This document shows positions 12,104-19,036 of a stretch of DNA of 62,163 nucleotides, piece after piece. Every line of letters starts with the position of its first letter. The first letter of the stretch is position 1. The DNA comes from a virus (taxonomy: Duplodnaviria; Caudoviricetes). The DNA lies in the IMG/VR virus record IMGVR_UViG_3300013126_004346, positions 1-62,163 of that record, one strand, 5' to 3'. Under the pieces are notes generated by a model, which saw nothing but the letters and a program-made list of their open reading frames with translations, was not told the origin of the DNA and ran no database searches. The translations under genes were made by a program, and so were the position numbers.

Positions 12104-12327
12104 GTGAAGATTTACCAGAAAATATAAATTTAAACCATATAACGCCTTATATTAAGGCTTATGATAGAGCGCCAATACACAGGCTTGCACCAAAAATGCA
12201 AAGAAATGATTTATGTAAGGTTTCTGGTAAAAAATTTAAAAATTGCTGTGGACAAGGAAATCAAATTAATTATTGCAAAGTAATGTTAGAAAGTTTTTTT
12301 GAAAAAGATATAAAAAATGGAAGTTGA
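12100..12327 (+). CDS. SEC-C motif protein
   Basis: RNDLCKVSGKKFKNCCG; ATGA overlap at 12100. Confidence 0.65.
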   Translation: MSEDLPENINLNHITPYIKAYDRAPIHRLAPKMQRNDLCKVSGKKFKNCCGQGNQINYCKVMLESFFEKDIKNGS

Positions 12328-13321
12328 GTTTGTTGATGTAATTTTTGGGCTTTGTTGGGGTGATGAAGGCAAGGGTAAAATTAGTAATGCTATATCAAAA
12401 GATTATGATGCTGTTTGTCGTTGGAATGGAGGATCAAACGCTGGACATACGGTTTATATAAATGAAAAGAAGCACAAAACTCATATTGTCCCTTGCGGAA
12501 TATTTTCTTCTAAAAAAAGTATTATTGGTCCGAACTGTGTAATTAGCGTAGATGGTTTTTATAAAGAGATAGAATATTTAAAAAATGAAGGATTTGATAC
12601 ATCTTTAATAAAGATTAGCCCAAAAGCTCATATTGTAACTCAATCTCATATAGATTATGATTTGAAATTTTTAAAAGAAAAACTCGGAACAACTGGACAA
12701 GGAATTGCTCCAGCCTATGCAGACAAAATGCTAAGAATAGGAAAGCTTGCTAAAGATTTTATAGATAAAAAATATATATGGGATGGTGAATTATATGGTA
12801 AAATATTGTGTGAAGGTGCTCAAAGTTTTTGGCTTGACATAAACTATGGAGATTATCCATACGTTACAAGTAGTGAGACTTTACCGTATTCTGCTTGCTC
12901 GCTAGGATTTTCTCCAAAAAAAATAAGAGATATAATTGGTGTGGCGAAAATTTATGATACAAAAAGCGGTAAAGATCCATTATTTCCAGAAACTTTATGG
13001 GACGATCCTATTTTAAATAAAATTATAGAGCTTGGAAAAGAGTTTGGCTCAACAACTGGAAGAAAAAGAATTGTTAATTGGTTGCGACTAAATAATCTAA
13101 TAACTGCAATAAAATTATCTGGAGCCAATAAAGTAATAATAAATAAATGTGATATTCTACAAGAAATAAATGAATATAAAATATTATTAGATGATGAATA
13201 TGGGCCGAATTTTATAAAATTTATAGACTTTGAATCAATGAAATCATATATTACTAATGAACTAAAGAAAATAAAAGATTTTTCTGAGGTTATTTTTTCT
13301 GGTAATAAAAATGGAATTTAA
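12317..13321 (+). CDS. purA: adenylosuccinate synthetase (compact form)
   Basis: WGDEGKGK, GGSNAGHT, GTTGQGI, EGAQ, YPYVTSS, TTGRKR, NKCD. Confidence 0.92.
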   Translation: MEVEFVDVIFGLCWGDEGKGKISNAISKDYDAVCRWNGGSNAGHTVYINEKKHKTHIVPCGIFSSKKSIIGPNCVISVDGFYKEIEYLKNEGFDTSLIKISPKAHIVTQSHIDYDLKFLKEKLGTTGQGIAPAYADKMLRIGKLAKDFIDKKYIWDGELYGKILCEGAQSFWLDINYGDYPYVTSSETLPYSACSLGFSPKKIRDIIGVAKIYDTKSGKDPLFPETLWDDPILNKIIELGKEFGSTTGRKRIVNWLRLNNLITAIKLSGANKVIINKCDILQEINEYKILLDDEYGPNFIKFIDFESMKSYITNELKKIKDFSEVIFSGNKNGI

Positions 13322-13889: not shown

Positions 13890-13910
13890 AAATTAATTTA
13901 TTAAATTTCT

Positions 13911-14298
13911 TGGACCCGAAAGGAGTTGAACCTTTGTCTTTTAGAGAACTTAAATTAAAATACTACAGGTTTATTTCTTTTTATTTTTTGCCTTTTATAG
14001 ATAAAGAACAAACATAATTGGCGATTTTATTTTTAATACTAAATATTAATAGAATAAAAAAACTATTAGTATAAAGACATCTAAATACGCAATATTCCAG
14101 TAGATGTGTCGTGGATATCACGCTGTAGAACTTAGGCTACAGAAACGGTCTCCTCAGCTAGAGAGACTCTAGCAGAGATATGACCTTTGTATTTAGCTGT
14201 TTTGGCAGTTAATACTTTTAAGGCTTTTTAAAGAGACCCACCTAAACCTCTACCTGCATTTTAATCTCGATTCCTAAAATCGAAACCAGTACGGGCCC
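13911..14298 (-). ncRNA. ssrA: tmRNA
   Basis: 5' GGGCCCGUACUGGUUUCGA; 3' T-arm AAAGG-UUCAACU-CCUUU then CGGGUCC-A; acceptor stem has the G3:U Ala identity pair; UAACU-GCC resume context; tag ORF 14206-14132 AKTAKYKGHISARVSLAEETVSVA-stop; CCA not encoded. Confidence 0.94.
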
Positions 14299-14300
14299 AA

Positions 14301-14327
14301 TGTTAAAGAACTATATTTATATTACAA
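14301..14327 (-). promoter_or_regulatory. TGTAA-type promoter plus boxA-like element upstream of the tmRNA
   Basis: TTGTAA-N9-AGTTCTTTAACA-TT-GGGCCC; GTTCTTTAACA closely matches the rrn boxA consensus GCTCTTTAACA. Confidence 0.6.
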
Positions 14328-16426: not shown

Positions 16427-18100
16427 TTATTTTTTAAATTTAGAAACTCTTTTTAGAGCTCTATTTAGATTTTGTTCAATAGCTATTCCAGACAAATAAT
16501 TTATTGAAAGTTTTTTAATTTTTTGATTTATATTATATCTTGCGTTTTTTTGGCTTTCAATTAGAGAAGTATATAAATTTTCACCGTATCCTCTTCCAAT
16601 TACATTAAATTCATTATTTTCTATACTTACATATTGCTTAAGCCCACTTGAGCCATAATATAGACGACCAGATTCATTAAATCCTTGATAAGATAAGTAT
16701 TTAGTTATCATCCTGTCTTTAGAATCATTCGTTCCAAATCCTGTATATAAAAGATATAGAGGGAAATACATTCCAACATCTTTATTGTATTCTGTAGTTA
16801 TAAATTCTATTGTAAATAAAGTTTCTTTAGGAATAATACCATCCCATGTTCCAGTATTAAAATTTTTACTTCCTGTATATATATCTTTATAAAATCTATA
16901 GAACAGAGTATCTTTAATTGGAGTTAATTGACGAAGATGTTGATCGGAATTTATAGCGAAATAATTATAATAACCAGAAATACCAAAACAATCTACAGGA
17001 TTAACAAGACCCGACTCAAGATTATCAATAGTAAGGCCTGATGCATGAAAACCAGTTTGGTTAGTGCATCCAGTCTTAAATATACTCTCTATAAATTGAC
17101 TTGTGTGTTCTCCAGAAAAACGACTTCTTATTCCAGTTGAGGGAAATACTTCGCCAGTAAAATACTGTGATCCTAGAAATAGAGAATTTATTATAATTCC
17201 AGAAGGAAATCTTTTATAACTAATGTTTGAGTATAAACCTGTTTGTTTTACAGGAACATAAACTAAACAATTAGCTTTTCCAGTAGATAAACCATGAGGA
17301 GAAATATAACATATTTTAGAACTAACTCCTGTTCCAGTTGATATCGTTATTATGCCATTTAAATTTTTAAACCCTTCTAAATGTAAATGAGAAGCAGCTA
17401 ATTTTAAAGGTATTGGATATTTATTAAAAGACCAAGTATCTACAGTATTTGGATAAGTTAGATAAAAATTTGAATAAGATGGATTTCCACTTACAATACC
17501 ATTTGTGTTTCCAGTCGTCCATTTTCTAAATGCAAAAGACTGTTTAAAAGCTGCGCCACTAATAAAATTAGAATTTCCAACGTAAACAGTATTATTTTTT
17601 CTATAGTTTTTAGTTGAGTCGTATGTAAAACTTTGTCCAGTTAATATGCTAGAATTTGAAAAAGAAGTACTAAAAGCATGTCTAGCGTATACTATTTCAT
17701 CATCTGCACCAAGTATATAATCATCACTATTTTTAATCGGATTATAATTTTTAATTGAATTGAGATAATCATTTGCTTCATAATTTGCTAAAGAATTTTC
17801 TAAATAAAAGTAACCAAGTTGGCCATATGCTGGAAGTTTTAAATTAAATTCTGAATAATTTTCAGAAATATTTATTGGAATTTCATACATTTGATAAGTC
17901 TCATATGAACTCTGAGATTTTATTAAATCTTTTATAACTAAAACTGGTTTTGGAAGTCTTAAGGTCCCTTTATTTATAATATCTATAGTTGCTTTTTGTA
18001 ATTTTTTATGAGTAATTTTATCTGAATCTACAAATTGTGTATCTTCAGAAGCTTGAATAAAAGCCCCTAGACCCAATTTAATTAATTGCTTCTTAGTCAT
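16427..18100 (-). CDS. putative virion structural (tail/baseplate) protein
   Basis: 557 aa, rich in TG/SG and beta-strand-like sequence, like the protein at 61377. Confidence 0.55.
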   Translation of the reverse strand: MTKKQLIKLGLGAFIQASEDTQFVDSDKITHKKLQKATIDIINKGTLRLPKPVLVIKDLIKSQSSYETYQMYEIPINISENYSEFNLKLPAYGQLGYFYLENSLANYEANDYLNSIKNYNPIKNSDDYILGADDEIVYARHAFSTSFSNSSILTGQSFTYDSTKNYRKNNTVYVGNSNFISGAAFKQSFAFRKWTTGNTNGIVSGNPSYSNFYLTYPNTVDTWSFNKYPIPLKLAASHLHLEGFKNLNGIITISTGTGVSSKICYISPHGLSTGKANCLVYVPVKQTGLYSNISYKRFPSGIIINSLFLGSQYFTGEVFPSTGIRSRFSGEHTSQFIESIFKTGCTNQTGFHASGLTIDNLESGLVNPVDCFGISGYYNYFAINSDQHLRQLTPIKDTLFYRFYKDIYTGSKNFNTGTWDGIIPKETLFTIEFITTEYNKDVGMYFPLYLLYTGFGTNDSKDRMITKYLSYQGFNESGRLYYGSSGLKQYVSIENNEFNVIGRGYGENLYTSLIESQKNARYNINQKIKKLSINYLSGIAIEQNLNRALKRVSKFKK

Positions 18101-18171
18101 TATGCTTAGCCTGGCTTACAAAACTGCGCACTCCACTTTTTCTGTGTGTACCGACGCGTTTCGTATTCAAG

Positions 18172-18405
18172 CATTTTGTTTATGCTAAATTGTTTATATT
18201 TAGCTTCTCTATATCACTATAAAGATCAGACTATATCTTCTTGCTTTTGCAAGTTCGGGCGCTCGTGGGCAATATTATTGTTGGGACTCAATCGCCTAGT
18301 CGTTACACCTTACAACCTATCTTTCCCAGTTGTCTTGGCTCGGTATAATCTCAAAGAGACTTCCACCGAATTCACCCAAAATGGCCATTTAAATTATAAA
18401 GAACT
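18172..18405 (-). ncRNA. group I intron/ribozyme catalytic core (P3-P9 plus omega-G) with no identifiable host gene
   Basis: P3 UUUGGGUG (18380-73) pairs with CGCCCGAA (18261-54); P element AAUUCGGUGGAA; Q element AUACCGAGCCAAG; R element GUGUAACGACUA; S element AAGAUAUAGUCU; P8 CUUGC-AAAA-GCAAG; P9 hairpins; ends AUAAACAAAAUG at 18172. Confidence 0.85.
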
Positions 18406-18419
18406 ACAAGTAGTTACAA
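18398..18419 (-). promoter_or_regulatory. TGTAA-type promoter plus boxA-like element upstream of the ribozyme
   Basis: TTGTAA-N8-AGTTCTTT, the same layout as upstream of the tmRNA. Confidence 0.55.
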
Positions 18420-18463
18420 CTATAGCACCCAAAAGAGAAAAGAATAGTGTATATATAATATAT

Positions 18464-19036
18464 ATGCCAAATTTAAAACCATTTAGAGATTATAGCGAAC
18501 ATTTTGTATTAAATATATTTTCTTGTAATACAGTTGCAACGAAAGGCACTCTTGTTAAACCAGTGAGAAGTTGGAAAGATAATGGTGGCACAGATTCTTC
18601 AACTGCAGGACCATTAAATCTAACATCTACTTCAGTTGGTCAAAAATTTAATTCAACACTAAATAATTTTTTTGATATTAACGCTTCCGTCACTATAACA
18701 GTAAACTATAATGATACGCCAAAACCAATTGGTATACTTTTGAAAGATGTAAAAGAAGAAGACGAAAATGGAAATCTTCTAGTATATAATCCACGAAAAG
18801 TTGCAGAGATGGATGTAGCAGTAAAAGATTATCAGGCAGTACCAATATTAACTAAAGGACTTATACTTGTAAATGATATCGATATTTCTCGTGGAGGAGG
18901 GGATCCAGATCTTGGAGACGCAGCTTATGCTGGAGACAATGGAAAAATTGCAACAAACGGAACGATTTTAATTGGTACATTTTTAAGCCCAAAAGATGAA
19001 AATGGATATTGCTTAGTTAACTTGAATATGGGCTAA
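18464..19036 (+). CDS. putative capsid-associated (decoration/cement-like) protein
   Basis: Likely start ATG 18464 (MPNLKPFRDYSEH), 11 nt after GTGTAT; PIGILLKDV...VPILTKG...GTFLSPKDENGY; the track extension to 18146 is antisense to the ribozyme. Confidence 0.55.
   Translation: MPNLKPFRDYSEHFVLNIFSCNTVATKGTLVKPVRSWKDNGGTDSSTAGPLNLTSTSVGQKFNSTLNNFFDINASVTITVNYNDTPKPIGILLKDVKEEDENGNLLVYNPRKVAEMDVAVKDYQAVPILTKGLILVNDIDISRGGGDPDLGDAAYAGDNGKIATNGTILIGTFLSPKDENGYCLVNLNMG

Follow-up and report, generated by a model that had tools for sequence, protein, structure and literature searches.

A candidate circularly permuted group I ribozyme directly ahead of an intact phage gene

A phage contig of 62 kb (IMG/VR record IMGVR_UViG_3300013126_004346; the window, meaning the whole stretch of 62,163 nucleotides analyzed here) is about 40% complete by the record's estimate and encodes a ribonucleotide reductase, a DnaB-like helicase, a DNA polymerase, and a transfer-messenger RNA (tmRNA). 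Its minus strand carries, at positions 18172 to 18380, the core of a group I ribozyme, which is the subject of this report. Directly downstream of the ribozyme, on the same strand, is a complete gene for a protein of 557 amino acids (aa) (16427 to 18100, minus strand); on the other side is a divergent gene of 190 aa (18464 to 19036, plus strand), which has its most plausible start at the ATG at 18464 and serves here only as context. The alignment of the 557-aa open reading frame (ORF) with 12 homologues (496 to 563 aa) begins at its very first residues, and no coding exon is missing upstream of it. The upstream flank of the ribozyme is the antisense of the neighboring gene. Both flanking genes were found intact, as an initial annotation of this DNA had maintained in placing the ribozyme between two divergent genes and describing it as interrupting nothing. 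The ribozyme does not split a gene into two exons to be joined by splicing: the downstream protein is complete from residue 1, and no P1 helix lies upstream.

The core contains, in order, P3, P4, P5, P6/P6a, P7, an inserted hairpin, P3', P8, P7', P9, a further hairpin, and a conserved AUAAACAAAAUG that closes the core and whose last base is the terminal guanosine, G18172 (the end of AACAAAAUG). The insert sits between P7 and P3' and is followed by P8, P9, and another hairpin. Blocks of the P/Q/R/S type, read on the minus strand, begin at 18372 (AAUUCGGUGGAA), 18346 (AUACCGAGCCAAG), 18308 (GUGUAACGACUA), and 18239 (AAGAUAUAGUCU); every sequence block listed by the initial annotation is present where it had been placed. 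P7, by homology the helix of the guanosine-binding site, reads GACUA/UAGUC and is invariant in 27 of 27 copies of the element (described below). In a local scan, the Rfam model Intron_gpI (RF00028) matched positions 18207 to 18425 on the minus strand with 58.4 bits (E = 3.8e-14) against a gathering cut-off of 50 bits, and the match was repeated in a search of the phage's own genome, which bears out the earlier call of a full group I core on this strand. The same model scores type B relatives of the element at 69.6 to 83 bits. A scan of the whole window at Rfam gathering thresholds missed the ribozyme and returned the tmRNA as its sole entry. The local scan gave no match at E ≤ 10 to the lariat-capping ribozyme GIR1 or to any other Rfam family, apart from a chance match to a small RNA, and no riboswitch aptamer family matched at E ≤ 10 within 17900 to 18700 or at E ≤ 0.1 in six relatives. 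With a core above the cut-off, the P7 helix, a P1 with a U·G wobble whose substrate strand lies downstream rather than upstream, and a terminal G, the core belongs, on these features, to the group I family. As a whole, however, the element does not qualify as an intron, since it interrupts nothing and has its parts in permuted order.

Relatives of the element were collected through the downstream protein and through the RNA itself, and we refer to their loci by L numbers. A locus search with the single protein found no relatives' loci; an alignment-based search from the 557-aa protein yielded eight viral loci, and in all eight a homologous RNA lies directly upstream of the homologous gene. An Rfam scan by E value matched only one of these eight relatives (L010), though all eight carry the RNA by sequence and by a purpose-built model. 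This covariance model was built from nine copies and run on loci fetched by core and leader patterns, and its scores fell into two tiers, with ordinary introns in coding genes at no more than 138 bits and a distinct top tier at 197 to 283 bits. The copy set comprises 34 hits, namely the top tier and four lower-scoring hits having the leader motif described below, and amounts to 29 distinct sequences from phage and metagenome contigs. One contig bears three copies (L010 twice and L139) and another bears two (L054 and L096), each ahead of a paralogue of the downstream gene. A search of phage sequences in GenBank returned only a match of 46 nucleotides (nt) within the core, in an ordinary intron that phage J2-1 carries next to an HNH gene, and a scan of genome contigs gave one match, in a 12-kb contig of a metagenome-assembled genome that came without host information.

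In an alignment of 27 copies, pairing holds in 98.9% of 1,530 cells, and compensatory changes are seen at 35 of the 57 pairs; none of 500 shuffles was as good, and slid controls paired at 36 to 42%. The initial annotation had raised the question of whether covariation would expose the element as a decaying remnant, and these compensatory changes give that view no support. They point instead to a ribozyme that is intact and conserved under selection. Alternatively, the element could be a structured leader without catalysis, or what is left of an intron in decay, retained for the sake of folding, stability, or the binding of a protein. Contigs of relatives that read through the terminal G would be compatible with this, and the catalytic activity proposed here is a prediction from sequence. 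However, compensatory changes have preserved every core helix, P7 is the same in all 27 copies, the U·G wobble described below is invariant in the 25 copies analyzed for it, and the element has spread to paralogues within genomes. We consider this alternative very unlikely, because decay would not preserve such features.

The two ends of the element are connected by a long-range helix. A guide strand, UGGCC (18383 to 18387, minus strand), precedes P3 by 2 nt, and a substrate strand, GGCUA (18107 to 18111, minus strand), lies just ahead of the start codon of the 557-aa gene. The possibility that these two strands pair had been pointed out before, and we find them to be both complementary and covarying. 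The helix is present in every analyzable copy, that is, in 25 of the 29; the four left out are L150, which has no exact partner for the guide, L169, which meets a contig end, and L185 and L219, in which the guide could not be assigned. One pair of the helix, formed in the window by U18108 and G18386, is a U·G wobble in 25 of 25 copies. The middle pair, in contrast to this invariance, is C-G in nine copies, U-A in seven, A-U in seven, and G-C in two, and the pair beyond the wobble is A-U in 17 and U-A in six, with mismatches in the remaining two. Among the 10 distinct haplotypes, 49 of 50 cells form pairs, compared with a shuffle mean of 35.9, and not one of 20,000 shuffles reached this value. 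We also noticed, by eye, that GGCUA (18107 to 18111) can pair with UAGUU of the leader motif (18402 to 18406) through a helix with two wobbles, and that in L150 the corresponding GGAGCUA pairs with UAGUUCU; this pairing, which is not conserved across haplotypes, could represent an alternative inactive fold.

In a covarying helix, a U·G pair that never varies and lies next to the last pair is the mark of the P1 reactive site. Canonical relatives of the ribozyme inside coding genes (L052, L120, and L071) have a closed P1 hairpin of 9 bp, then UAAAAU, then P3, with no P2. The guide strand of the permuted family, 2 to 4 nt before P3, occupies the same place as the guide of these relatives. Because the wobble is invariant and the guide is positioned as in canonical relatives devoid of P2, the long-range helix is better read as P1 than as P2. 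The initial annotation had interpreted the pairing as a rebuilt P2, with P1 and the 5' exon coming from another RNA in a trans-splicing reaction. Such a scheme would account for a long-range, covarying pairing and for the lack of an upstream exon, but the wobble and the position of the strand are those of P1, and no second guide-like strand is free to receive a substrate in trans. Since every analyzable copy has a covarying partner in cis, a trans-supplied P1 is also unnecessary, and we assign trans-splicing a very small probability. The general roles of the guide sequence, P1, and P10 in group I introns are set out in passages of PMC3984707.

An upstream partner for the guide would allow a more conventional arrangement, in which the element is an ordinary cis-splicing intron in a 5' untranslated region (UTR), is transcribed from further upstream, and uses the hairpin at about 18425 to 18400. 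The Rfam model is aligned end to end over its positions 1 to 253 and includes this P1-like hairpin of the window, and a group I ribozyme in a 5' UTR is known from Clostridioides difficile (in passages of PMC3984707). The hairpin itself, however, pairs no better than shuffled columns do: in nine aligned relatives, 66.7% of its cells are paired, against a shuffle mean of 66.8%, and 343 of 500 shuffles scored as high, so that we rejected it as a P1 candidate. Moreover, its bases belong to a motif that is conserved in sequence and is also found before the tmRNA, and further upstream lies the antisense of the neighboring gene. In just 2 of 25 copies do the 100 nt upstream contain a 5-bp stretch that could pair with the guide. 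The earlier observation that the ribozyme has neither a 5' exon nor an upstream P1 is upheld by these results, and cis-splicing of a 5' UTR intron appears scarcely credible to us.

The remaining landmark is the 3' end of the core. At the place corresponding to a 3' splice site, all 27 listed copies retain a UG, as do the canonical relatives, and the AACA-N-UG motif that closes the canonical relatives at their 3' splice site also ends the permuted copies, here at G18172. Between this guanosine and the reactive uridine of P1 lies a segment of 64 nt (18108 to 18171, minus strand), the predicted circularized "exon", which is flanked by the 3' splice-site-like G18172 and ends in the 5' splice-site-like U18108. 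The corresponding segment measures 59 to 71 nt in 17 copies and 109 to 192 nt in eight, with the substrate strand following the terminal G by 55 to 67 nt and 105 to 188 nt, respectively. In most copies, the segment folds as a long irregular hairpin that brings its ends together, and for this reason both sites sit at the hairpin base. The long-type hairpins (109 to 192 nt; L130, L260, and L135, and also L016 and L139) contain sequence blocks that are conserved within subgroups. No Rfam family matched these long-type domains, which could be extra domains of the ribozyme or a functional part of a circle.

In the window, then, the site that resembles a 3' splice site (G18172) precedes the one that resembles a 5' splice site (U18108), with a segment between them, which is the arrangement of permuted intron-exon constructs. 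Because the guide comes first and is followed by the core, the terminal G, the hairpin, and the reactive U, the element is probably a circularly permuted group I ribozyme with its permutation point in the P1 loop. The initial annotation had offered a circularly permuted intron that splices back on its downstream exon as one of two options; the topology fits that option, and the circularization is a prediction from sequence.

We consider it fairly probable that the element is a domesticated, circularly permuted group I ribozyme that cuts its own mRNA ahead of the AUG and, probably, circularizes the hairpin. The transcript would start near the shared leader motif and continue through the guide UGGCC, the core down to G18172, the 64-nt hairpin, the substrate GGCU/A (the slash marks the predicted scissile bond, U18108/A18107), and the AUG. 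As the covariation suggests, the guide would pair with the downstream substrate strand to form P1, in which the U18108·G18386 wobble would mark the reactive bond. Two steps follow from known group I chemistry. First, free guanosine or GTP would attack at the bond between U18108 and A18107 and yield an mRNA with an added G and the leader AAGCAUA. This 7-nt leader would resemble the short leaders that many genes of this phage seem to bear. Second, and less certainly, the 3'-OH of U18108 would attack after G18172, releasing a 64-nt circle and freeing the ribozyme; we propose this step because the terminal G is conserved and the geometry fits. The net effect would be the removal of a long structured untranslated RNA, with translation possible only after the ribozyme has acted. 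We put forward more tentatively, as a possibility short of an even chance, that a GTP-dependent reaction strips a leader of approximately 300 nt, leaves the added 5' guanosine as a "cap" (possibly a triphosphate), forms the circle, and licenses translation according to folding and the GTP level.

Several observations weigh against the proposal of a permuted ribozyme that cuts and circularizes. The P1 of L150 is imperfect, with 4 of 5 pairs (paired by eye, without a count), and the distant member L219 has a closing helix of 20 bp with no U·G wobble, which may represent a different closing design. P10 is weak, with a mean anchored length of 2.0 bp versus 1.2 bp in cross-comparisons and at least 4 bp in only 4 of 25 copies. 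Short-type copies differ from one another in the sequence of the hairpin "exon"; the circle, if formed, may be a by-product. Finally, metatranscriptome contigs of relatives run past the terminal G in three cases, and one contig of a relative (run X2) ends in adapter-like letters right after 18386. The read-through contigs indicate that unprocessed RNA or contaminating DNA exists, and the adapter-like end hints at an RNA 5' end at the wobble base G18386, which the proposal does not explain and with which it fits badly, because it needs a transcribed, paired U18387 and a retained leader motif. As to the canonical relatives, their P10 looks equally weak (by eye, without a count). In L219 (2035 to 2291, minus strand, with about 42 nt downstream), the whole 5' leader, including the shared motif, is taken up in the 20-bp helix (-27.5 kcal/mol).

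Some of these points would be accommodated by a simpler ribozyme, one that cleaves in cis in a single guanosine-dependent step at U18108/A18107 and forms no circle, with the terminal G and its flank serving only for folding. The evidence from P1 and from the start codons applies equally to such a ribozyme, and both the weakness of P10 and the unconserved hairpin among the short-type copies speak for it. Yet 27 of 27 listed copies retain the UG at the place homologous to a 3' splice site and the hairpin places the terminal G beside the P1 site, features that would have no obvious reason to be conserved if the G were unused. We therefore regard one-step cleavage as unlikely, while giving it appreciable weight. 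There is also a modest hint of a helix between the flank of G18172 and the mRNA leader. AAGCAU of the leader can pair with AUGCUU around G18172, and the mean energy of this duplex is -3.66, compared with -2.59 for cross-pairs (as low in 7 of 5,000 permutations, not corrected for relatedness). RNAalifold additionally pairs GUU of the leader with the AAC that precedes the terminal G, but neither side varies among the copies, and the pairing is hence uninformative.

The metatranscriptome contigs mentioned above come from a survey in which six lake or freshwater runs contained limited portions of the region. Four of these runs have contigs of relatives, with about 90% similarity, that cover roughly 18186 to 18384. 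No joints were reported for the contigs of the four runs, and they leave the hairpin and the leader of the window itself uncovered. We considered whether the places where contigs stop, at the terminal G and close to the guide, could count as evidence for processing and set them aside, since assembly branching where a conserved core meets a variable flank can explain them. Because the contigs belong to relatives, these data do not test the model.

The element is tied to translation starts. In the window, the predicted cut leaves the 7-nt leader AAGCAUA and the start codon (together 18098 to 18107, minus strand), and across 25 copies the distance from the predicted cut site to the AUG is 2 to 39 nt, with a median of 7. 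In 23 of 25 copies, the downstream protein matches a single family profile; the exceptions are L198 and L224, the most distant ribozymes, which stand before other ORFs. The earlier description of the element as having no host gene consequently holds in the sense that no gene is interrupted, but it overlooks the tie to the start of a downstream gene that is mostly of one family. Among ORFs of the window, a perfect TATAAT occurs 2 to 14 nt before the start in 10 of 50 (within the 22 nt scanned), where 1.4 would be expected (P about 1e-6), and a Shine-Dalgarno-like motif occurs in only 11 of 49. These counts suggest that this phage makes wide use of leaderless mRNAs or mRNAs with very short leaders. 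The 190-aa divergent gene has a TATAAT 4 nt ahead of its ATG; its product has a weak Pfam match to Phage_cement (E = 2e-5; 25.1 bits, under the cut-off of 27).

Upstream of the guide, the ribozyme is preceded by a two-part leader motif, consisting of the hexamer TTGTAA (18414 to 18419, minus strand; GTGTAA in most relatives), which is conserved upstream of the ribozyme, and TAGTTCTTT (18398 to 18406, minus strand), which is nearly invariant in the 27-row alignment. As the initial annotation had recognized, the same layout stands before the tmRNA gene (13908 to 14298, minus strand; 106.7 bits, with a tag peptide predicted by ARAGORN). There the motif spans 14305 to 14327 on the minus strand, with TTGTAA at 14327 to 14322 and TAGTTCTTT at 14313 to 14305, and the spacing of the two halves differs by one base from that at the ribozyme. 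These are the only two sites of the window with both halves on the strand of an adjacent RNA gene; a third match to the search pattern, at 2807 on the plus strand, falls inside other sequence. The motif precedes the tmRNA in L003 and L005 too, and these two loci have a promoter-like TTGnnA-N17-TATAAT just upstream of it. One subgroup has a hairpin between the two motif halves. The TTGTAA/GTGTAA hexamer is probably part of a promoter or of a transcript start region, and we infer that the leader motif lies at or near the start of the transcript. Part of the motif, TAGTTCTTTAA(C)A, looks like boxA; if it acts as one, it may shield a lengthy untranslated transcript against termination. The window also has a perfect TATAAT at 18398 to 18393, 7 nt before G18386, and at this place the relatives show no conserved -10 element by eye.

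To our knowledge, group I ribozymes occur in nature almost only as introns, and the few domesticated forms, the lariat-capping and c-di-GMP-controlled ribozymes, are textbook curiosities. The closest relatives of the present element are canonical IA-like phage introns (L052, L120, L071, and that of Pseudoalteromonas phage J2-1, L001), with which it shares P3 to P9, the hairpins after P7 and P9, a guide directly before P3 without P2, and a 3' end of the form AACA-N-UG. Those introns lie inside coding genes and have a 5' exon and a closed P1 hairpin upstream, whereas in the ribozyme described here the P1 substrate is downstream of the terminal G, every gene is left uninterrupted, and a homing endonuclease gene is absent. 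The parts follow the order of engineered permuted intron-exon (PIE) constructs, in which the 3' part of an intron, the 3' splice site, an exon, the 5' splice site, and the remainder of the intron follow one another; the chemistry and the circular exon product are likewise those predicted here. Unlike PIE constructs, the present element is natural, its break lies in the P1 loop, its core is whole at the 5' end, and the "5' half" is an mRNA.

Among natural systems, the circularly permuted group II introns of bacteria, as presented in passages of PMC8637638, share a permuted self-splicing ribozyme, a back-splicing topology, RNA circles (predicted in our case), and conservation without the interruption of a gene, while differing in ribozyme class and chemistry. 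In those passages, the permuted group II RNAs are said never to abut an ORF precisely, in contrast to the ribozyme here, which ends a few nucleotides before a start codon. GIR1 is also derived from a group I ribozyme, is located ahead of an ORF, and shapes the 5' end of an mRNA (according to a passage in PMC8637638). The present ribozyme differs from GIR1 in lacking a match to its model in the scan reported above and in having a P1 with a U·G pair, an ordinary P7, and a terminal G, and because of these last three features we would expect ordinary transesterification rather than GIR1-like branching. The 5' and 3' ends of GIR1 also pair with each other. The c-di-GMP-controlled group I ribozyme of C. 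difficile likewise resides in a 5' UTR, where processing decides whether a start codon is usable, but, in the passages of PMC3984707 that deal with it, it has the canonical order and an upstream aptamer and splices linear exons; in the present case the order is permuted and no aptamer family was found. Natural back-splicing of a group I intron with a permuted exon order is exemplified by the giant ND5-717 intron of mushroom-coral mitochondria (PMC6545197, and a passage in PMC8637638), which is organellar, very large, and restores a coding sequence, rather than forming a compact standalone module before a complete gene. The literature searched, which had partial coverage and did not include supplements, yielded no account of a group I ribozyme permuted by nature in a phage or bacterium. 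If our interpretation is true, the element would be for group I what the permuted introns described recently are for group II, and a natural version of the permuted intron-exon method used for therapeutic circular RNA; it would also constitute a new phage route to translatable mRNA and, on the more tentative reading given above, a gene-expression device in freshwater phages.

The downstream protein belongs to a small family, with 73 clusters among 1.84 billion representatives. Neither the 557-aa protein nor eight paralogues matched Pfam or PHROG, an Atlas search with the 557-aa protein returned nothing usable, and one long relative has a Laminin_G_3 domain. A first AlphaFold model of the protein was poor (pLDDT 38.7) and a second was fairly confident (pLDDT 78.9); the latter had no fold match at E ≤ 0.001 in PDB or BFVD, and the top rows of the fold search, none of them significant, listed phage tail proteins and pore-forming toxins. 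Outside the family, many unrelated phage contigs (L015, L116, L031, L071, and others) contain several ordinary group I introns of this subgroup within a few kilobases, with up to seven model hits in L015. Elsewhere in the window, a 334-aa protein (12317 to 13321, plus strand) matches PHROG 1211, named 2-aminooxy adenylosuccinate synthetase (E = 3.8e-65), which we take to be a PurZ-like family tied to phage genomes with modified adenine.

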